Shown: piece by piece, positions 6,501-63,431 of the stretch | How positions within the stretch are numbered: position 1 is the stretch's first letter | Layout: the number at the start of each line of letters is the position of its first letter | From: Pseudomonadota bacterium | GTDB taxonomy: Archaea; Thermoplasmatota; SW-10-69-26; JACQPN01; JAJPHT01 | Direction: 5' to 3' | Assembly: GCA_021325135.1 (NCBI GenBank) | Contig: JAJPHT010000020.1 | Location: 64,001 to 128,000, forward strand | DNA length: 64,000 nucleotides | Program-made: the position numbers and the translations under genes | The notes under the pieces: generated by a model | The model's input: the letters and a program-made list of their open reading frames with translations, nothing else | What the model was told of the DNA's origin: nothing | Database searches by the model: none

Positions 6501-9365
6501 AACGGCCGCGCGTACGGCTACCGCGTCGTCGCGGTGGACGCCAGCGGCAACGCGGCGCCCGAGAGCGACGCGGTCACCGCGAAGCCCGTCCGCACCCTCT
6601 CCGCGGCCCTCGTGGCGGCGGACGGGACAGGGGACGCGACCGGCGGGGCGCCCGCAAGCGCGGACCTCCAGGGCGCGGGCCTGGGCTACGACGGCAGCAA
6701 CCTGCGCGTCGAGTGGCCCATCGCCGACCTCGCGGCCGCGCCCACGACGATCCGCCACGACATGGCGTTCACCATCAACTCGCAGAACTACGTCTTCGAG
6801 TACGAGCGCGGCGGCACGCGCTGCAATCTCTACACGCAGACCAGCGCCGCGGGCTTCGACCCCGTCGCCAACGCCAACCCGTACACCTGCGGCGTGGACG
6901 CGGCGCGCGGCGTCGTCTGGGGCCTCGTGCCCAACGCCGCGCTGCGCAACGTCCTCGTGGCGGGCGCGCAGGTCACCGGCGTCTCCGCCGACACCTGCAT
7001 GCTGGACACCTCCAGCGGCGGCGTCACGGGCCTCTCGTGCTACTCGCCCCCCCGCGGCGACCGCGCGCCCGACGCCGGCTCCGCGACCTACGTCGTGGGC
7101 ACGCCCAACTCGGCGGGCCACGTCGTCATGGGCGGCCTCGGGGACCAGGCCGGCGCCGAGGGCAGCCTGGTATCGTTCCAGGTGCCCGCGACGAGCCCCG
7201 AGGGCGACAAGGTCGCCTTCTCGGCGACCGGCCTCCCCGCCGGCGCGACGCTGGACCCCGACACGGGCGCCTTCTCGTGGACGCCCACCTTCGCGCAGGC
7301 GGGCCGCTACCCCGTGACGCTCACGGCGGACGACGGCGCGGCCAGCGCGACGAAGGCGATCAACCTCACCATCGCCAACGTCGACCGCGCGCCAGTCCTC
7401 GACGCGGTGGCCGACCAGACGGTGGCGGGCGGCTCGTCCCTCGCGCTGGCGCTCCACGCCACCGACGCGGACGGCGACGCGCTGACCTACGGCGGCGCCA
7501 ACCTGCCGCCCGGCGCCACGGTGGACGCCGCGACGGGCGCCTTCCGCTTCGCGCCCCCGGCCCACGCCGCCGCGAGCTACCCCGGCGTCGTGCTCTCCGC
7601 CTTCGACGGCGAGAAGTACGGCAACCAGACCTTTGATATCATGGTCACGGACGTGGAGACGGCGCCCGCGCTGGACGCCATCGCGGACCAGACCGTGGCC
7701 GAGGGCGGCTCCATCGCCTTCCAGGCGCGCGCGACGGACGCCGAGGGCGACGCGCTCGCCTACGCCATCGAGGGCGCGCCGGAGGGCGCCTCCTTCGACC
7801 CGCAGACGGGCGCCTTCTCCTACGCGGCGCCCTTCGCGACGGGCCACGACTCGCCCGCCTACGCGCTGCGCGTCACGGTCAGCGACGGCGAGCAGAGCGC
7901 GGAGCGCGACCTCACGCTCACCGTGGCGGACGTGGACCGCGCGCCGGCCTTCGGCCCCCTGGAGAACGTGAAGGTCAACGAGACGGAGCCCATCTCCTTC
8001 CCGGTGAGCGCCACCGACGCGGACCTCGACGCGGTGACGCTCTCCGCGGACAGCCTCCCCGAGGGCGCGACGTTCGACGACGGCCAATTCTCCTGGACGC
8101 CCACCTTCGACCAGTCGGGCAACTACCCCGTCGCGTTCCACGCGTCGGACGGCATCGCCACGACGACGCGCACGGTCATCCTCACCGTGGGCGCCGTCGA
8201 CCGCGCGCCCATCTTCGACGCGACGCCCGACCAGGCCGGCGCCGAGGGGAGCTTGCTGTCGTTCGCCGTCCACGCCGCGGACCCCGACGGCGACGCGGTG
8301 GCCTACCACGCCACGGGCCTGCCCCAGGGCGCGACGCTGGACGCGCAGACGGGCGCCTTCTCGTGGACGCCCGGCTTCACGCAGGCGGGCAGCTACGCGG
8401 TGACGTTCACCGCCAGCGACTCGCAGCTCTCGGTCAACGAGACGGTGGCCCTCGCCATCGCCGACGTGGACCGCGCGCCCGTCGTCGCGCCCCCGCAGGC
8501 GGTCAACGTCCTGGAGGGCACGCCCATCCAGCTCGTCGTCCACGCGGCGGACCCCGACGGCACCGCGGTCGCGCTGAGCGCGGCCGGCCTCCCAGAGGGC
8601 GCGACGTTCGCGGACCACGGCGACGGCACCGGCAGCTTCGCGTGGACCCCCGCGCCCGGCGCGCACGGCGCCTACGCGCCCTCGTTCACGGCGACGTCCA
8701 ACGGGCTTTCGGGCTCCGCGACGCTGGGCCTCACGGTGCGCTTCCGCGCGAACTTCACGGTGGACGCCACGGACCCCACGACGATCCACGCCTCGCCCGG
8801 CCAGGCGGTCGACCTCGACGCGGTGGTGACGAACCTCGGCGTCGAGCCCGACTCGTTCTCCTTCGGCCTCGCGCAGACGCAGGCCTGGGGAGGCGCCGCC
8901 CCCGCGACGACGAACCTCGCCGCGGGCGAGAGCCGGCACGTGACGGTCCACCTGGTGGCGCCCGCCAGCGGCACCCTCGACCGCGTGAACCTCACCGTCT
9001 CGTCGCTGGGCCAGCCCGGCGCATCGAAGACGGCGAGCTGGACCGCGGACGTGCCGCTGGTGCTCAGCGTGCGCCTTGACAGCGCAAGCCTGCACCCCTG
9101 GCAGCGCCCCGCGGGCGTCGTGCGCGCCACGCACCTCGACGGCTCCCCCGCCGCGGGCGTGGCCGTGACCCTCGCCCAGGCCTCGGACGCGCTGGCCCTG
9201 GCGGCCTCCACGCTCTCGGGCCACGCGGACGCCAACGGCCTGTGGTTCTTCGACTTCGGCAGCGACGCCATGGCGCGCGCCCCCGGCAGCCACACCCTGG
9301 CCGCCACGGCGGGCCTCGCCGGCGTCGCGCCCACGCGCGTCGCCACGGCCTACACCGTCGGCTAG
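3522..9365 (+). CDS. Giant secreted multidomain surface protein (FN3 repeats, Asp-box propeller, putative Ig/He_PIG repeats)
   Basis: TTG start with GGAGG SD, signal peptide; FN3 motifs (LSWSAP...YQVSAVNSAGEG), Asp-boxes (TDDGGATW, SDDLGATW), repeated GLP.GATLD..TG.FSWTP. Confidence 0.85.
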   Translation: MTADPNRRARAAIAALLFLLPAGSALLHVADAASGTNVVTDPAGDNTGGGPQADVLRVGASNDASKLYFYVEVGSTSPPAADVEYQVDFTAPGQPPSARQYSIVATYSASGSMGPATLDFLTDVTGSSARTEQASIVGDEIVFAMSRADVSSPPTGATFTAIDALTYPPADPTTTWDDTSSGSYTMAAPTPATPSAPSITGAAGSPSSVALSWSAPASSGSSSVTGYKVYRGTTSGGETLLATLGNVLSYADSAVSAGQTYFYQVSAVNSAGEGPRSAEASATVAAPTLPGAVQGLSATAGDGKATLSWSAPASDGGSPITAYQVFQGSAPGAEGPTAVATVAGASATLTGLANGQTYYFRVRAQNAVGLGPEGSEVTVTPSLADAPTAFEDYHNTLGDTSSAGEPSLGVDQETGAVLYTSGFNTYKITNLRPNADARTPGAATWADVSNVKFAPTVLGDPIGWLDRHTNRFFQAELLVPPDCSQMGYTDDGGATWNVSDGSCNTPNGEDHETVGGGPFHGEKGPQLGSAYPDSVYYCTQANALATCAVSEDGGVTFQPARVIYHTILNQNTIATADGADPSGFCFNLHGHVKVSPTGIAAVPNKNCYTTGSQETKGGVTTSDDGNTWRIFSIPSSTQDPNGGDDDPSLDWSQSRAPGATHDRLWYGYYDGDHHMKIAHSDDLGATWSPSFDVGASLGLVNTKFPEVVAGDWDRAAIAFLGSATAGDNQASGFNGVWHLYVATTYDGGQTWTTVKASTDPVQKGCISMGGTTSSTCRNLLDFMDAQLDATGHVAVAYPDGCEGACAADENPHAWSSSYSNDAAPALAYQSGGRGLLSAFDTSKTVPAAPVIMASAGNGLVRLQWAPPNDGNSPITGYLVERDGSLLATLGAVASFEDRSVANGATYGYQVAAINSVGTGALSAPVSATPFFDDQAPTQVTDLQASAAADHAISLLWDASSDDHGVDHYDIIRDGAVVASVSSATTAFADSGLQNGRAYGYRVVAVDASGNAAPESDAVTAKPVRTLSAALVAADGTGDATGGAPASADLQGAGLGYDGSNLRVEWPIADLAAAPTTIRHDMAFTINSQNYVFEYERGGTRCNLYTQTSAAGFDPVANANPYTCGVDAARGVVWGLVPNAALRNVLVAGAQVTGVSADTCMLDTSSGGVTGLSCYSPPRGDRAPDAGSATYVVGTPNSAGHVVMGGLGDQAGAEGSLVSFQVPATSPEGDKVAFSATGLPAGATLDPDTGAFSWTPTFAQAGRYPVTLTADDGAASATKAINLTIANVDRAPVLDAVADQTVAGGSSLALALHATDADGDALTYGGANLPPGATVDAATGAFRFAPPAHAAASYPGVVLSAFDGEKYGNQTFDIMVTDVETAPALDAIADQTVAEGGSIAFQARATDAEGDALAYAIEGAPEGASFDPQTGAFSYAAPFATGHDSPAYALRVTVSDGEQSAERDLTLTVADVDRAPAFGPLENVKVNETEPISFPVSATDADLDAVTLSADSLPEGATFDDGQFSWTPTFDQSGNYPVAFHASDGIATTTRTVILTVGAVDRAPIFDATPDQAGAEGSLLSFAVHAADPDGDAVAYHATGLPQGATLDAQTGAFSWTPGFTQAGSYAVTFTASDSQLSVNETVALAIADVDRAPVVAPPQAVNVLEGTPIQLVVHAADPDGTAVALSAAGLPEGATFADHGDGTGSFAWTPAPGAHGAYAPSFTATSNGLSGSATLGLTVRFRANFTVDATDPTTIHASPGQAVDLDAVVTNLGVEPDSFSFGLAQTQAWGGAAPATTNLAAGESRHVTVHLVAPASGTLDRVNLTVSSLGQPGASKTASWTADVPLVLSVRLDSASLHPWQRPAGVVRATHLDGSPAAGVAVTLAQASDALALAASTLSGHADANGLWFFDFGSDAMARAPGSHTLAATAGLAGVAPTRVATAYTVG

Positions 9366-52972: not shown

Positions 52973-53045
52973 TGGGCCCAGCAGGATTCGAACCTGCGGC
53001 ATTCGCCTTGTAAGAGCGACGTCCTAACCCCTGAACGATGGGCCC
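52973..53045 (-). tRNA. tRNA-Val (TAC)
   Basis: Cloverleaf GGGCCCA...TCGCT-CT TAC AA-GGCGA...GGTTCGAATCC...TGGGCCC-A; no encoded CCA. Confidence 0.93.
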
Positions 53046-53195: not shown

Positions 53196-53268
53196 AGCCC
53201 CGTGGTCTAGTGGCCAATGATTCGGGACTCTGGATCCTGCGACCGCGGTTCGAATCCGTGCGGGGCTA
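53196..53268 (+). tRNA. tRNA-Gln (CTG)
   Basis: AGCCCCG...CGGGA-CT CTG GA-TCCTG...GGTTCGAATCC...CGGGGCT-A; A1-U72 as in archaeal tRNA-Gln. Confidence 0.93.
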
Positions 53269-56614: not shown

Positions 56615-58360
56615 TTACCGATCAAGCGTCCCCGGCGTGTAGTACGGGTTGGAGGCCGCGATGGCCTTCGTGTCCACGCCTGCGGGCGCGCCCGCGGGGA
56701 GCAGCGGCAGCGTGAGGGCGCTCTTCGCCAGGTCCAGGGTGAGCGCGGGCTCGTTGCCGTTGGCGTTGTACCACGAGGCGTCCTCGCCGAGGACCACCAG
56801 CGCGATGCGCTCGCCCTTGTGGAACACGGCCTCGGAGGGGTAGAGGTCCACGGGGACCGTCATGGCCTCGCCGGGGGCGACCGCGTCGCTCTGCGCGCGC
56901 CCGTTGCGCTGCTCCAGGCCGCGGCCGCCCTCGTCCACCCACCACCAGGCGCCCTTGTCGGTGACGTTGTAGAGCTGGACCACGACGTGCCCGTCGCCGG
57001 GCCGGTCCGCCGAGAGGCCCAGCACGAGGCGCGGCATGCCCGCGACGCGGACGTCCTGCGCCAGGGGCTCGCTCACGAACGTCGCGCTGGGCTGCGCGGG
57101 CGAGGCCGCGAGGGCGCCCTCCACCGGGAGCCCCAGGCCGTTGGTGGGCATGGCGTAGACGGTGACCGAGCCCGAGCCGGGCGCGTCCTGGAGCTTGCCC
57201 GGGGCGAGGTGGAGCGTGAGGTTCGTCGTCCCGCGAGGGGGCCAGTCCGTCTCGTTGCGCCAGCGCCCGTCGGTGTCCTGCACCTGGACGGCGGGCAGCG
57301 AGCCGGGGATGCCGTTGGCCTTGCCGTCGAGGTAGTGGTCGAACCACGCGACGATGGTGCTGTTCCAGTCGGGGCGGCTCCAGTCCTTGTTGTGGGTGTT
57401 GGACCACGGGATGTTGTGCTCCCACTGGCCCCACCACTGCATCTTCTCGCCGGGGATGAGGTCGAGGACCGCGCCGTTGTCGGGCTTCACGTTCCAGTCG
57501 GCGAGGCCGTGGACGAGGAAGACGCTGGCGTTGATCTTCGAGAACTTCGCGCTGAGGTTGCGCTCCTGCCAGAACGAGTCGTAGACGCCCTTCTCCGTGG
57601 TCGTGAGCGACTCCGCGAGGTGCGTGGCCTCCAGCGCGCAGACGTGCGTGGGGTCGACGACGGGCGCCTGCTGCTCGAGGAGGGGGTCGTAGCCGAAGCT
57701 CTCGTCCACCCAGTAGCGCGGGTAGAACGTCGGCCCCTGGAGGTAGTAGGGGGCTCCGTCCTGGTACTCGTAGCGGTAGAAGTCGGAGATGCCCTCGATG
57801 GGCACGATGGTCTTGAGGTGCTTGGGGGCTCCGATGGCGACCTCCCAGGGCGTCGTGCCGTCGTAGGAGACGCCCATGACGCCCACGTTGCCGTTGCTCC
57901 AGGGCTGCTCGCCGATCCAGTCGACGAACTCGGCCAATTCGCGCTGCTCGTCCGCTCCTCCGATCTCGAAGCACCCGCTGCTGTCCCCCGTGCCGGGCAC
58001 GTTGGCGGCGACGTAGGCGAAGCCGTGCCCCAGCAGCATGCCGACGCCGAAGAAGTCGCCCGCGAAGCCGTAGAGGTCCCCCGTCCCGATGCCGTAGGAC
58101 TCGTGGAAGTAGGGGCTGATCTGCGCGACGACGCCGAAGCGCTCGCCGGGCTGCGGGTCGTGGGGCAGGTAGACCGTGCCGCGGACGTGCGTGCCGTCCT
58201 TGGCCGCGAAGTCCAGCGCCTTGAGCGCGGGCGTCACGTTGGCCGTGGGCAGCACCGGCGCCGCGACGCTGGCGGGCGACACGGTGCCGGCGGGGGCCTG
58301 GGAGACGCAGCCCGCGAGGGCGGCCGACGCAAGGAGGGCAGCGAGGACGATGGCTCTCAG
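56615..58360 (-). CDS. CocE/NonD (peptidase S15) family hydrolase lipoprotein; probable CTG start
   Basis: GTGDSSG, WSNGNVGVMGVSYDG, VHGLADWNV, GQWEH; lipobox ALAGC upstream of the ORF-track start. Confidence 0.9.
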   Translation of the reverse strand: MRAIVLAALLASAALAGCVSQAPAGTVSPASVAAPVLPTANVTPALKALDFAAKDGTHVRGTVYLPHDPQPGERFGVVAQISPYFHESYGIGTGDLYGFAGDFFGVGMLLGHGFAYVAANVPGTGDSSGCFEIGGADEQRELAEFVDWIGEQPWSNGNVGVMGVSYDGTTPWEVAIGAPKHLKTIVPIEGISDFYRYEYQDGAPYYLQGPTFYPRYWVDESFGYDPLLEQQAPVVDPTHVCALEATHLAESLTTTEKGVYDSFWQERNLSAKFSKINASVFLVHGLADWNVKPDNGAVLDLIPGEKMQWWGQWEHNIPWSNTHNKDWSRPDWNSTIVAWFDHYLDGKANGIPGSLPAVQVQDTDGRWRNETDWPPRGTTNLTLHLAPGKLQDAPGSGSVTVYAMPTNGLGLPVEGALAASPAQPSATFVSEPLAQDVRVAGMPRLVLGLSADRPGDGHVVVQLYNVTDKGAWWWVDEGGRGLEQRNGRAQSDAVAPGEAMTVPVDLYPSEAVFHKGERIALVVLGEDASWYNANGNEPALTLDLAKSALTLPLLPAGAPAGVDTKAIAASNPYYTPGTLDR

Positions 58361-58657: not shown

Positions 58658-59083
58658 TTGCGCACGCTGGCAGTCCTCGTCGTCCTCGTCTTCCTTGGCG
58701 TCCCCGCGCTGGCGGCTGCGCCCTCCGGCTGCGTGCCCCAGTGCGAGGTGCCCAGCGCGGAGAGCGGCTACGTCCCGCCCGCGACCGTCGTGCCCTCGGG
58801 CTCCAACGTGACGTGGTCCTCGCTGGACCGCGCGCACACGGCCACCGAGCCGGGCGTCCCGGCGTCGCAGGCGTGCGTGAACGTCCTCTACGGCCCCGCG
58901 CCCGGCCACGCCCGGTTCGCCATCCACAACGGATCGCTCTGGGCGCAGCAGCCCCTTCAATTGGAGAAGCGCTGCTCCACCGCGAGCCTCCAGCGCGACG
59001 GCTCGTGGCTCCTGGAATACCACTGCCTCTACCACTCGCAGATGGTCGGCTTCCTCCTCGTCCGCCCCGAGGCCTCCCCATGA
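58658..59083 (+). CDS. Secreted type-1 (blue) copper cupredoxin
   Basis: GGAGG SD + TTG; signal peptide; VTW...HTAT...YHCLYHSQMVG (His/Cys/His/Met). Confidence 0.85.
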   Translation: MRTLAVLVVLVFLGVPALAAAPSGCVPQCEVPSAESGYVPPATVVPSGSNVTWSSLDRAHTATEPGVPASQACVNVLYGPAPGHARFAIHNGSLWAQQPLQLEKRCSTASLQRDGSWLLEYHCLYHSQMVGFLLVRPEASP

Positions 59084-60333
59084 CCCGCGCCCTCCTCGCC
59101 CTCGCCGCCGCGCTGCTCCTCCTGCCCCTGGGCCTCCACGCCTCGGCCGCCGGGCCGCGCACGCTCACCGTGTCGCCCACGGGGGATTACCACACCATCC
59201 AGGCTGCGGTGGATGCGGCGAGCCCGGGGGACACGGTGCTCGTGGCGCCGGGCGTGTACCAGGAGGCGGTGTCGGTCTCGACGCCGGACGTCACCATCCG
59301 CGGCGAGGACCGCGAGGGCGTCGTGCTCGACGGGGGCGAGGCGCTGGGCAATGCGTTCACCGTGACTGCGGACGGCGTGACGCTGGCGAGCATGACGGCG
59401 CAGCACTACGCCAGCAACGGCTTCGTGTTCACCCGCGTCGATGGCTGCCGCTTCGACGACCTGCACGCCAAGGACAACGGCGAGTACGGCCTCTACGCGG
59501 TGCACTCGCGCCACTGCGTCATGGAGAACAGCCTCGCGGAGGGGCACGGCGACTCGGGCTTCTACCTGGGCGAGACGGTGGACTGCGACTGCGACGTGCA
59601 GGACAACGTGGGCTGGAACAACATGCTGGGCTACTCGGGCACGGCCAACTCCCACATCCGCATCCACGGCAACGACTTCTTCTGGAACCGCGCGGGCATC
59701 CTGCTTTCCGTGCTGCCCGACGAGATGGGCGCGGACGTCTGCCCCGACCCCGCGGGCGGGTCCCCCGCTCCCGGCGACGCGTGCCCCGGCGTCACGCCCT
59801 ACGGCCTCCAGACGCGCACGGAGGTCTACGGCAACCACGTGCACGACAACAACAACCACACCCGCGCGACGGGCCTCTTCGCGACGGTCCACCCGCCGGT
59901 GGGCGAGGGCATCGTCATCTCCGGCGGCTGGAACGACGACGTGCACGACAACCTCGTCGAGGACAACCACCTCTGGGGCGTCGGCATCTTCTGGCTCACG
60001 ACGCCGCCCCGCGGCAACTTCGTCCACGACAACCAGATCAGCGGCGGCCGGTACGGCATCTGGTGGGACGAGCAGGGCGAGGACCACTGCTTCGCCAACA
60101 ACGCCATCACCGACGTCCGCGTCGCCAGCGACCCGGCGGTCCTCCCCTCGTGCCCGGGCCCCGCGGGCGATCTGCCCTGCCCCGCCGCGCTCTCAGATTA
60201 CGCCGCGTGCCGCGCCAACGACGCGCGGGCGCCCTCGGCGGCCAAGGACGCGGGCCTCGCATGGCGCTCGTACTGGGACCTCGACCCGTCGCAGGACGCG
60301 CCCGCGACGAAGCCCACCGGGGACGGTGCGTAG
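59080..60333 (+). CDS. Secreted right-handed parallel beta-helix protein (NosD-like)
   Basis: TIQAAVDAASPGDTVLVAPGVY, DNGEYGLY, DSGFYLG, Asn ladders; ATGA overlap. Confidence 0.85.
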   Translation: MTRALLALAAALLLLPLGLHASAAGPRTLTVSPTGDYHTIQAAVDAASPGDTVLVAPGVYQEAVSVSTPDVTIRGEDREGVVLDGGEALGNAFTVTADGVTLASMTAQHYASNGFVFTRVDGCRFDDLHAKDNGEYGLYAVHSRHCVMENSLAEGHGDSGFYLGETVDCDCDVQDNVGWNNMLGYSGTANSHIRIHGNDFFWNRAGILLSVLPDEMGADVCPDPAGGSPAPGDACPGVTPYGLQTRTEVYGNHVHDNNNHTRATGLFATVHPPVGEGIVISGGWNDDVHDNLVEDNHLWGVGIFWLTTPPRGNFVHDNQISGGRYGIWWDEQGEDHCFANNAITDVRVASDPAVLPSCPGPAGDLPCPAALSDYAACRANDARAPSAAKDAGLAWRSYWDLDPSQDAPATKPTGDGA

Positions 60334-60336
60334 GCC

Positions 60337-61176
60337 ATGCGCTCGCGGTGGGTCCTCGGCGCGCTGGCGCTCCTCCTTCTGGCCTCCTCCAGCGGGCTCT
60401 CCGCGCCGCCCGCGCCGCCGCAGGCGCGCAGCTTCACGCTGGAGGCGACCGCAGTGCCCTGCCCCGCGGGCCGCGACCCCTACGGCGACGGCATCTGCCT
60501 CGCCTACAACGGCCAGATCCCCGGCCCCACGCTTGATATCAATCTCCTGGACAACGTGACGCTGACGCTCGTCAACCACGTCCCGCAGACGGTGTGGAGC
60601 CTGCCGCCGGGGCACGACGACGTGAAGGCGCGCCTCGCGGCGTCGGGCGTCAGCTTCCACCTGCACGGCACGGCGCTCTCGGTGAAGGAGGACGGGCTCT
60701 CCTCCGCCATGGGGGCGACGTTCTTCGACTCCTACGCGCCGCCCAACGGCTCGTTCACCTACCACTTCCGCGCGGTCTACAACGGCACCTGGCAGTACCA
60801 CGACCACGTGCTGGGCCTCGACGGCATGGAGGGCGACGCGCGCGGCCTCGCGGGCACGCTGGCGATCCGCTCGGGGGGCGAGGTGCGCCCTGACGCCATC
60901 GTGGACGTGCACGCCATGGACGCGGGCCCCTTTGTCCTCCAGAACGGCACGGTCCACCCGGGCGGCAGCTTCGAGCTTCTTGAGACGGTCCTGGGCGACT
61001 GGACGTGGACGTTCACGCTCACGGACCCCGCGGGCGCCGTGGTGCGCACCCTGGATCTGGGCCCCGGGCAGGCGGAGCACGTCGTCGTCACGGGCGCCGC
61101 GGCGGGAAGCTATCGCTGGAGCGTCTCCGACGACATCCGCGGCGACGCGTACCACGGGACGGTGGTCGTCCAATGA
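60337..61176 (+). CDS. Secreted multicopper-oxidase N-domain protein (SLAC domain-1-like)
   Basis: Signal peptide; YNGQIPGPTL, SFHLHG, GTWQYHDH, GLAGTLAI. Confidence 0.85.
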   Translation: MRSRWVLGALALLLLASSSGLSAPPAPPQARSFTLEATAVPCPAGRDPYGDGICLAYNGQIPGPTLDINLLDNVTLTLVNHVPQTVWSLPPGHDDVKARLAASGVSFHLHGTALSVKEDGLSSAMGATFFDSYAPPNGSFTYHFRAVYNGTWQYHDHVLGLDGMEGDARGLAGTLAIRSGGEVRPDAIVDVHAMDAGPFVLQNGTVHPGGSFELLETVLGDWTWTFTLTDPAGAVVRTLDLGPGQAEHVVVTGAAAGSYRWSVSDDIRGDAYHGTVVVQ

Positions 61177-61961
61177 AGGCCAGCGTCGTGATCGCGGCCC
61201 TGCTCCTGGCGCCCGCTCTCGCAGCGCCCGCCGTGGGGCAGTTCCCCATGCAGGTCCCGGGCACCGACGTCTACCTCGACGGCGCGCCCGACCGCGTGTT
61301 CGACCTGGTCATGCAGGGGCACACCATCAACCTCCAGGGCTACCCGGGCGACGGACTGCCCGCGGGCGCCGGCCTCGTGCTGGAGGCGTACCTGGGGGAC
61401 CGCGTGCAGTTCACCGTCGCCGTGCCCGCCACCGCGGAGCCGCACACCTTCCACCTGCACGGGCACCCGTGGTTCGCGCCCACCGTGGGCCGCATGGTGG
61501 ACACCTGGCTCCTGCACCCCGGCGACGTGCACTCCTTCAGCGTCGTCGCGGGCGGCATCGACGGCAACGCCGGCGACTGGATGTTCCACTGCCACCTCGC
61601 CACGCACGCGGCCTCCGGCATGTGGGGCATCTTCCGCGTCTACCCGTACCGCTCGGTGATCCCGCCCATCCTGCCCGGGCCGCAGCGCGGCGGCGCCTTC
61701 GACGTGCATCTGGACCGCCTGGGCGTCCCCGTGGACGGAGCGCACCTCATGGTGCAAGTGGACGGCAAGCCGCTCCCCGCGCAGGTGACGCCCCTGGGCG
61801 GCGGCGCGTACCGCGTGGGCGCGGACCTCCCCGCGACGGGCGTCCTCGTCGTCACGGCGCACCACCCCGACCTGGGCGTCAGCGTCGCGCGCGTGGGCCT
61901 GGGCGGGACGCCCGTGCCGCCCCTCACCGCGCAGATGGACGCCATGGCGCACGCCGCGTGA
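61173..61961 (+). CDS. Secreted multicopper-oxidase C-domain protein (SLAC domain-2-like, T1 site)
   Basis: Own signal peptide; HTFHLHGHPW and WMFHCHLATHAASGM. Confidence 0.88.
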   Translation: MKASVVIAALLLAPALAAPAVGQFPMQVPGTDVYLDGAPDRVFDLVMQGHTINLQGYPGDGLPAGAGLVLEAYLGDRVQFTVAVPATAEPHTFHLHGHPWFAPTVGRMVDTWLLHPGDVHSFSVVAGGIDGNAGDWMFHCHLATHAASGMWGIFRVYPYRSVIPPILPGPQRGGAFDVHLDRLGVPVDGAHLMVQVDGKPLPAQVTPLGGGAYRVGADLPATGVLVVTAHHPDLGVSVARVGLGGTPVPPLTAQMDAMAHAA

Positions 61962-62189: not shown

Positions 62190-63287
62190 TCAGCGCCGCG
62201 CCGTGAGCCAGGCCTCGGCGCGCTCGCCCGCGTAGCGCGTGGGGTCGCGGTTCACGAACTCCACCATGGGGCCGAGGCGCTCCGCCATGGCGTTGGCGGC
62301 CAGGAAGCCGACGCCGCCCGCGAGGACGGCCCACGGGATGGTGGCCCAGTCCAGGGGCACGGTGAAGACGAGGCGCGGCGCGAGGGCCCAGTAGGCGTAG
62401 GAGCCGCCCACGGCCAGCGCGAGGGTGACGAGGAGGCGCTGCGCGGAGCCTTCGGCCACGATCCAGGCGACCTCCACCGCGGCGCCGATGGCGACGACGT
62501 GCCAGGGGACCGCGCTGATGGGCCAGCCGGTGGCGGCGAGCACCGCGTTGGCGGCGAAGCGCTCCACCGCGAAGGCGGCGAGCACGCCCAGGGCGACGCC
62601 GCGGACGCCGGTCACCTGGCGCACCAGCACGGCGAAGAGGATGCCGATGGCCAGGGCGTAGGCCGGGTAGAGCACGTGGGGCAGGCCGCCGTAGTACGGG
62701 TCCTTCACCATGTCCGCGTAGCCCTGGATCTCCAAGCCCACGACGTAGAGGCTGTTGCCGTGGAAGTGGTTCCACGCGCCCACGACGGTGTACTCGTTGT
62801 AGCCCAGGGGGAAGGCCAGGGCCTCGAAGAGGAAGAGGAGGAGCAGCCCGAAGACGCCCCACCGGGCGGGGGTGAGGCGCGCCTCGCGGACGCGCGTGCC
62901 GGGGCGCCAGCCGGCCTCTGCCAGGAAGAGGAGGACGATGCCCGCCACGGTGATGGTGGTGCCGTAGAAGAGCATGAGGTGGCTGGGGCTCCACGTGGTG
63001 AGGTCCAGCCCGAAGATCTGGTGCCACGCCTGGTCGAAGGGGATGGCCGCCAGGAAGACGGCGAAGCCCGCCAGGATGACGTTGAGCGCGGGCTGCGTTG
63101 CCTCGGTGCGCGCGCGCCACGAGAGGAGCAGCGCCACGGAGATGAGGACGAAGCCCACCATGTTGACGACGTGGGGGGGCGAGATGGTCTCGCGCAGGAG
63201 GCGGAAGTGCCAGGAGACGTCCCAGGCGGAGCTGACCAGCTTCAGGGCGAGCCCGGCGATCCAGAGCGTCCAGACGGTGCGGCGCAT
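62190..63287 (-). CDS. Polytopic membrane protein with two PmoC/AmoC-like D-x-x-W-H...P-x-H motifs
   Basis: WDVSWHFRLLRETISPPH and FDQAWHQIFGLDLTTWSPSHLMLFY; ~10 TM helices; GGAGG SD (alternative start 63323). Confidence 0.8.
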   Translation of the reverse strand: MRRTVWTLWIAGLALKLVSSAWDVSWHFRLLRETISPPHVVNMVGFVLISVALLLSWRARTEATQPALNVILAGFAVFLAAIPFDQAWHQIFGLDLTTWSPSHLMLFYGTTITVAGIVLLFLAEAGWRPGTRVREARLTPARWGVFGLLLLFLFEALAFPLGYNEYTVVGAWNHFHGNSLYVVGLEIQGYADMVKDPYYGGLPHVLYPAYALAIGILFAVLVRQVTGVRGVALGVLAAFAVERFAANAVLAATGWPISAVPWHVVAIGAAVEVAWIVAEGSAQRLLVTLALAVGGSYAYWALAPRLVFTVPLDWATIPWAVLAGGVGFLAANAMAERLGPMVEFVNRDPTRYAGERAEAWLTARR

Positions 63288-63431
63288 CGAGGCCCTCCGG
63301 CGGCGTTCGAGGGCCGCGGCCATACTTAACCTCGCCCCCGCCGACGTCCCGGCAAGAAGGGGAAAAGCTCAAACGCGCCGCCGCGGGCCGCAAAGGAGAT
63401 AGCGCGCCCCCGGGCTCGCCCGTTGCCACCC

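Follow-up and report, generated by a model that had tools for sequence, protein, structure and literature searches.

The window analysed here is a 64,000-nucleotide stretch of contig JAJPHT010000020.1 (positions 64,001 to 128,000 of the forward strand) from the Thermoplasmatota genome GCA_021325135.1. Near its end lies an open reading frame (ORF) on the minus strand (62190..63323; 377 amino acids (aa) plus stop). By profile comparison, residues 13–140 of its product are genuinely, if very distantly, homologous to the catalytic core of PmoC/AmoC, the C subunit of the copper membrane monooxygenases (CuMMOs), which include particulate methane monooxygenase (pMMO) as well as ammonia monooxygenase (AMO). 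We consider homology to the PmoC core, with two metal sites, very probable. The second half of the protein is modelled with a PmoA-like fold, a feature that is new here, and the whole may be a minimal relative of the methane and ammonia monooxygenases. An initial annotation of this DNA had described the product as a stand-alone PmoC/AmoC-like protein with two Asp-His-His sites, working without A or B subunits. Of that interpretation, the remote homology stood, as did the lack of any separate amoA, amoB or amoC gene. The wording "without A" and the pairing given for the second motif had to be changed.

Profile evidence for remote homology to PmoC/AmoC

Searched as a single sequence, the whole protein matched nothing in Pfam, NCBIfam or the sequences of the Protein Data Bank (PDB), and a profile of 20 close homologues found no match among the PDB sequences. 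A broad profile of the N-terminal domain (129 representatives, residues 13–140) was run against all PDB sequences at E ≤10. It returned 15 matches, 14 of which are AmoC or PmoC, the best at E 1.8e-5 (27.8 bits). We also assembled an alignment of 40 real AmoC proteins, fetched with the 79-residue stretch printed by HMMER. Against this alignment the N-terminal domain of the family gave a probability of 92.8% in hhalign (E 4e-7), with a score of 49.5 versus 12.9–14.7 for reversed-profile controls. When the 20,954 six-frame ORFs of the genome were scanned with an AmoC hidden Markov model (HMM), this ORF was the sole match. The curated models respond faintly. The Pfam AmoC model matches 21 of the 129 members weakly, more than any other family does, and one distant member matches TIGR03078 (E 4e-4). 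The N-terminal domain alone scores 16.8 bits, below the curated Pfam AmoC cut-off of 26.7.

In M. capsulatus PmoC, the CuC site is formed by Asp156, His160 and His173 and the CuD site by Asn227, His231 and His245, with Arg165 in the second sphere (PMC12576850). The initial annotation had named these ligands correctly, and the PmoC motif it quoted is the one that HMMER prints for PDB 7s4l_C and 6cxh_C. It had also given the extent of the ORF, the positions of both triads and their His-His spacings (12 and 14) as we find them. In the HMMER alignments the first motif (D35-x3-H39-x4-R44-[E45]-x5-H51; 63171..63221, minus strand), at the outer end of transmembrane helix (TM) 1 and the start of TM2, falls on CuC. 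D35, H39 and H51 lie over the Asp, His and His ligands, and R44 sits at the Arg165 position. The second motif (D97-x3-H101-x5-D107-x7-H115; 62979..63035, minus strand), located where TM3 ends on the outer side and TM4 begins, falls on CuD. Here D97, H101 and H115 lie over Asn, His and His; the His-His spacing is 14 in both, and the first ligand is Asp, not Asn. D107 aligns with the first Glu of a conserved M-E-E stretch in AmoC/PmoC, the position equivalent to E217.

These positions hardly vary within the family. In an alignment of the 129 cluster representatives of the N-terminal module, D35, H51, D97, H101 and D107 are kept in every member, H39 and H115 in 128, an acidic residue at position 45 in 124, and R44 in 110. 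To judge from this alignment, the conservation of the six ligand positions is far beyond chance.

The AlphaFold2 (AF2) model of the N-terminal domain (residues 13–140; 62904..63287, minus strand) consists of four TM helices that form the two duplicated hairpins, at a predicted local distance difference test score (pLDDT) of 91. Model residues 1–138 (pLDDT 91, predicted TM-score (pTM) 0.90) superpose on residues 101–247 of the AmoC chain 9leg_C with Z 7.4 and a root-mean-square deviation (rmsd) of 3.5 Å over 137 residues, at 15% identity. A Foldseek search of the PDB with the whole model returned noise only (best E 0.11). For the N-terminal part, the relation to PmoC/AmoC proposed in the initial annotation is borne out as remote homology by the profile search, hhalign and the alignment of the triads.

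Hairpin duplication in the metal-binding bundle

The two halves of the bundle resemble each other closely. In hhalign, hairpin 1 (TM1–TM2) aligns with hairpin 2 (TM3–TM4) of the family at 98.5% (E 3.4e-15), ligand on ligand. Both also match the CuC hairpin of AmoC, at 94.9% for hairpin 1 and 86.0% for hairpin 2. The two hairpins of AmoC itself, compared with each other, reach 0.2%, with no similarity detectable, and the isolated second hairpin of the family finds no match in the CuD hairpin of AmoC.

Because the two hairpins are duplicates, motif 2 looks CuC-like. The initial annotation had noticed this resemblance correctly, but in the colinear alignment motif 1 falls on CuC and motif 2 on CuD. 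On these sequence comparisons, the family serves as a link through which the origin of the CuC/CuD pocket by duplication of a hairpin becomes visible. The suggestion that the protein may be informative about the origins of pMMO and AMO therefore gains support, since the duplication that the family displays no longer shows in AmoC.

A C-terminal domain with a PmoA-like predicted fold

Residues 145–377 (62193..62891, minus strand) form a separate conserved domain, present in 55 of the 168 proteins of the collected set. AF2 models it with six TM helices, a short outer helix and a C-terminal helix (pLDDT 92). Four of its residues are invariant (F171, E177, R255 and P273). The profile of this domain matched no PDB sequence and no Pfam family, and none of 39 members carrying it matched Pfam AMO or PF12822 (ECF_trnsprt).

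Folded alone (pLDDT 92), the domain matched S-components from energy-coupling factor (ECF) transporters and one old PmoA chain in a representative structure library. The chains that Foldseek ranked highest were realigned with VIA-align. After realignment the nine best entries are all PmoA or AmoA (9cl2, 9cl6, 7ev9, 9leg, 9cl1, 7s4l, 4phz, 7s4h and 3rfr; Z 13.1–13.8). The seven pMMO entries superpose with rmsd 3.2–3.5 Å over 172–176 residues, spanning PmoA 18–253, and the two AMO entries with 5.7 Å over 187–188 residues. S-components come next at Z 12.0–8.4 (5edl_A 12.0, 3p5n_B 10.8, 4dve_A 10.2), followed by unrelated chains at 6.7 or less. The full-length model leaves this ranking unchanged (PmoA/AmoA Z 11.6–12.4). 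In Foldseek, PmoA of 9cl2 has a probability of 0.90, a TM-score of 0.47 and E 0.6, and no row for the domain reaches E ≤0.001.

A single model of the C-terminal domain thus matches PmoA/AmoA and the ECF S-components alike. Since it matches both, PmoA itself may belong to the S-component fold; a 2024 paper on that fold contains no mention of monooxygenases (PMC11109136).

The conserved motifs of PmoA are absent from the domain. An hhalign comparison with a PmoA alignment (14%) was dropped as evidence: its register is at odds with the structural alignment, and among 20 block shuffles one scored as high. On the models, the C-terminal half has a PmoA/AmoA-like fold, and the argument for kinship is one of fold and context only. 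We judge true kinship with PmoA to be reasonably probable. A C-type core followed by an A-like domain is also the order of xmoC and xmoA in operons. The earlier description of a protein working without A or B subunits therefore needs dividing: no separate gene for either was found, but the protein's own C-terminal half is PmoA-like in predicted fold.

Topology and packing of the two halves

The N-terminus is rich in arginine. By the positive-inside rule, applied to the sequence and the modelled helices, it and the loops at 70–76 and 137–154 are probably cytoplasmic, which would place both triads at the outer ends of their helices. In pMMO, the PmoC sites lie on the same (outer) side of the membrane.

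Predicted as two separate chains, the N- and C-terminal halves pack with an ipSAE of 0.89, versus 0.00 for the best control. This mark is reached by 58 of 80 solved complexes and by 2 of 110 mismatched pairs. The two-chain runs share at least 88% of their contacts, with a partner pLDDT of at least 85. Because the halves belong to one gene and a pass is expected, the result serves as an interface map only. On this map the C-terminal domain lies against the bundle at TM1, TM4 and the D107 loop. The N-terminal side contributes W34, residues 36–38, 40–44 and 106–111 (with D107 and W111), H115 and F119, and the C-terminal side E167, F171, P172, Y178, R255 and P268. In the predicted interface, the best-conserved residues of both halves, which on the C-terminal side are E167, F171, P172 and R255, meet around the ligand-bearing segments.

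A large family without annotation

A word-indexed search found 20 relatives, every one unnamed or labelled 'hypothetical protein'. With an exhaustive HMMER search, 780 cluster representatives were recovered at E ≤1e-3, many of which match residues 15–140 alone and differ in the remainder. In a pattern scan of one genome per species, a relative is present in 589 species genomes. Among the carriers are a few Thermoplasmatota and many Streptosporangiaceae (Nonomuraea, Microbispora), besides Pseudonocardiaceae and Bacillaceae/Paenibacillus (Neobacillus, Priestia megaterium); most of the family belongs to Actinomycetota and Bacillota. In Thermoplasmatota it is rare (9 of 301 genomes, with full-length copies in only 3). 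The closest named relatives come from metagenome-assembled genomes of Thermoplasmata/Thermoplasmatota. The Gandjariella member is a 'hypothetical protein' in RefSeq, and the ESM Atlas clusters bear the same label and have no Pfam family. This is a large family that bears no family annotation in the databases searched, and our literature search found no paper describing it or its link to PmoC.

Domain arrangement differs among members. Within a group comprising P0098, P0104, P0125, P0134, P0146 and P0154, some carry the two-triad bundle at residues 180–335, after an N-terminal part of about 180 aa of no known family. Others have 400 residues of no known family after the bundle. P0098, P0104 and the long forms scanned alongside them had no Pfam match. 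The orthologue in a sister genome of the same genus (G076:C101:853-1393) was matched in three pieces on at least two frames, and may be a frameshifted copy or a pseudogene.

Gene start and genomic neighbourhood

Both candidate ATG starts of the ORF are preceded by a Shine-Dalgarno-like motif, in a window with a G+C content of about 72%. Close homologues begin at the position of M13 (63287), so the gene is probably 62190–63287, encoding 365 aa. It is monocistronic.

The initial annotation had proposed looking for pmoA and pmoB homologues elsewhere in the genome. None was found: the 3.77-Mb, 94%-complete genome gave no match to Pfam AmoA, AmoB or AmoC (PF02461, PF04744, PF04896), and a PmoA HMM gave none among its six-frame ORFs. 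Soil Thermoplasmata carry very divergent CuMMOs in C-A-X-B order (PMC9038741). Across 301 Thermoplasmatota genomes the Pfam AMO model yielded nothing above its cut-off and so may miss these enzymes; the genome may still hold such a divergent set. That the ORF is itself the AmoC of these divergent enzymes was considered and rejected; those proteins are short subunits in C-A-X-B operons, and here the gene is monocistronic with no A or B gene found.

The gene is divergent from a gene for a TauE-family permease and convergent with a tightly coupled operon of four genes (58658–61961, plus strand), with ATGA start/stop overlaps at 59080 and 61173. The operon opens with a small ORF with a cupredoxin-like C-x2-H-x3-M end (58658–59083; no Pfam match), followed by a NosD-like beta-helix protein (59080–60333). 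Two single-cupredoxin genes complete it, one with a Cu-oxidase_3 domain (60337–61176) and one with a Cu-oxidase_2 domain (61173–61961). Taken together, this pair resembles a multicopper oxidase of two domains whose gene has been divided in two. The operon is adjoined by a gene for an X-Pro dipeptidyl-peptidase (S15; 56615–58282, minus strand). An S15-like ORF also lies near the Sinosporangium member of the family (locus L028), without tblastn-detectable similarity to the S15 of the window. Further away are two divergently oriented tRNA genes (52973–53045, minus strand; 53196–53268, plus strand).

A relative with 70% identity has the TauE gene adjacent and the oxidase pair three genes away, and more distant archaeal and actinobacterial members sit among housekeeping genes. 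In Streptosporangiaceae, a gene for a CopD-domain membrane protein lies directly downstream, in convergent orientation, in 54 of 54 loci (L011–L087; about 7050–8400, minus strand, in each locus). The copCD genes follow amoCAB in ammonia oxidisers, and by analogy this parallel may be meaningful. In 18 of 20 Bacillaceae/Paenibacillus loci, nasD is directly downstream on the same strand (for example L014, 7116–9638), followed by nasE and sirohaem synthesis genes. Its start is typically 100–200 bp or less from the PmoC-like gene, and this short same-strand gap makes co-transcription possible. The nasD of Priestia megaterium S2 is apparently split over two frames. Each of these associations is lineage-specific: CopD in Streptosporangiaceae, nasDEF in Bacillaceae, and TauE with the multicopper oxidase in Thermoplasmata. 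In a separate locus (L090, 4001–8792), Cycloclasticus xmoCAB is followed by a 198-aa gene of no known family and, after it, a multicopper oxidase gene, so that here too a CuMMO lies beside such an oxidase.

Discussion

On balance we lean slightly towards a single-chain membrane metalloprotein of about ten helices that combines a PmoC core with a PmoA-like domain, lacks PmoB and acts as a redox or O2 enzyme. Each triad would hold a metal ion, most likely copper, the two ions lying next to each other in the manner of CuC and CuD. A two-metal site fits because both triads are fully conserved and equivalent. The two Asp-His-His sites are predicted to lie opposite one another at the duplicated bundle's outer end, where the PmoA-like domain would close a pocket beside them. 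The protein would act alone, with O2- or redox-dependent chemistry on a substrate that is small or soluble in the membrane and sits in the pocket between the two domains. In pMMO and AMO the CuC/CuD pocket is the active site, and whether two coppers work there is debated (PMC11725843, PMC12801151). Copper-related genes neighbour the gene in two lineages, which we count in favour of this enzyme. Oxidase or monooxygenase chemistry in particular is a tentative assignment, to which we give somewhat less than even weight.

Several observations weigh on the other side. Designed and unrelated four-helix bundles score above AmoC when superposed on the N-terminal bundle, so fold alone is not diagnostic of kinship with AmoC. 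The Z-scores near 13 for the C-terminal domain lie within the tool's caution range for helical proteins, and hhalign, Pfam and the PmoA HMM gave no sequence evidence linking that domain to PmoA. No PmoB-like partner was found, no reductant is known, and no neighbour gene is conserved across phyla. To our knowledge, the carrier organisms do not oxidise methane or ammonia.

The alternative that survives best, though we regard it as rather unlikely, is the handling of copper or another metal. Here the outward-facing Asp-His-His sites would capture metal for uptake, for export, for loading a secreted cuproprotein or for sensing. The CopD-domain gene convergent with the family gene in all 54 Streptosporangiaceae loci fits such a role, as does the operon of cupredoxin, NosD-like and split multicopper-oxidase genes next to or near the gene in the archaeon and its close relative. 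These copper neighbours, however, are convergent and not co-transcribed, each is limited to one lineage, and in more distant relatives the gene is surrounded by housekeeping genes. Conservation of the Arg and acidic residues that form the second sphere of the pMMO site also suggests more than simple binding.

We think it improbable that the protein works on its own as a transporter or receptor of the S-component type. In that case the C-terminal domain would bind a small molecule, as ECF S-components, BtuM and LytS-type sensors do, and the metal bundle would assist in binding or modifying it. S-components are the second-best fold class in the realignment, the top Foldseek row is 5edl (E 0.029, probability 1.00), and a shape search of the ESM Atlas with the C-terminal half gives ThiW and YkoE clusters. 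The S-component fold is also known to be reused in non-transport proteins (PMC11109136). Against this, no EcfT/CbiQ was found in the genome, in a search whose control was positive in 11 of 14 genomes, and this argues against a canonical ECF role for the domain. The 39 members scanned gave no Pfam ECF_trnsprt match, the first helix of the domain (residues 155–187) has no AxxxA, and PmoA chains outscore S-components in two independent models.

Less probable again is a metalloenzyme without redox chemistry, such as a Zn-dependent membrane hydrolase or transferase in which the Asp/His-rich bundle has been put to new use. Asp-His-His triads are common zinc sites, the CuC site of PmoC also takes zinc in pMMO crystals, and the hosts have no known need for a CuMMO. 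Yet Pfam, NCBIfam and the PDB offered no similarity to any hydrolase family, and the only significant relatives are copper monooxygenase subunits. That the likeness to PmoC reflects chance or convergence of short motifs in hydrophobic helices is hardly credible: Pfam and NCBIfam scores do lie well under their curated cut-offs, and transmembrane proteins give spurious profile matches, but three independent profile tests concur with clean controls, and all ligands and two second-sphere residues align at equal or near-equal spacing.

The enzyme reading that we prefer has a bolder extension, for which the chances are small: the family could be a copper membrane monooxygenase that needs no B subunit and works as one self-sufficient chain, or else what survives of the CuMMO ancestor. 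If so, the hairpin-duplicated bundle would hold two equivalent copper sites and be joined to a PmoA-like domain for the substrate, fission would have given rise to pmoC and pmoA, and the Asn at CuD and the lost symmetry would have come later as specialisations. It is even conceivable that the protein is an enzyme so far missing from the heterotrophic oxidation of ammonia or hydrocarbons, because members occur in tractable bacteria such as Priestia megaterium and Neobacillus, where the gene lies directly upstream of nasDEF.

pMMO and AMO control methane and nitrogen fluxes, and these enzymes are very hard to produce in active form. The family described here keeps symmetric triads and an A-like domain in one polypeptide, and its carriers include Bacillaceae and actinomycetes that are easy to grow. 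Such a family would offer a simple system for the metal chemistry of the CuC/CuD site, direct evidence that the PmoC core originated by hairpin duplication, and a candidate through which common soil organisms might carry out copper oxidation chemistry of a new kind at the membrane.

Comparison with known systems

The closest known counterpart is PmoC/AmoC (PF04896, TIGR03078; 7S4H/7S4L chain C, 9CL6 chain C, 9PXF chain G, 9LEG chain C). Shared features are the four-helix core, the Asp-x3-His...His arrangement of CuC and, at the CuD position, a triad spaced x3 and x13. Both also have an Arg that follows the first His and an acidic residue in loop two, and the predicted place of the sites is likewise on the outer side. 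The family differs in scoring below every curated cut-off, in missing the N-terminal helices of bacterial PmoC, in having Asp for the CuD Asn and hairpins that are recognisably duplicated, and in about 230 extra residues. Its gene is not part of an xmoCAB operon, and its hosts are not known as methane or ammonia oxidisers.

Those extra residues invite comparison with PmoA/AmoA (PF02461; 7S4H chain B, 9CL2, 7EV9 chain B, 9CL6 chain B). The fold of residues 147–361 covers nearly all of PmoA (18–253) and is placed after the C-like part. No sequence similarity was detected, and the likeness may stem from an S-component-type fold common to both, without direct descent. ECF S-components (PF12822; 5EDL, 3P5N, 4DVE; PMC11109136) share the six-helix membrane fold of the C-terminal half. 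In contrast to them, the family has neither sequence membership nor the AxxxA docking motif, the archaeon's genome yielded no EcfT, and the domain is fused to a bundle of metal-binding type.

The CuMMOs of Ca. Angelarchaeales (Diamond et al. 2022, PMC9038741) offer the nearest parallel in host. They too belong to soil Thermoplasmata with genes for blue copper proteins, and they include distant relatives of AmoC that keep the C-site triad. They are encoded as separate short subunits in C-A-X-B operons of three or four genes, whereas here, with no B or X subunit, a single gene encodes both domains.

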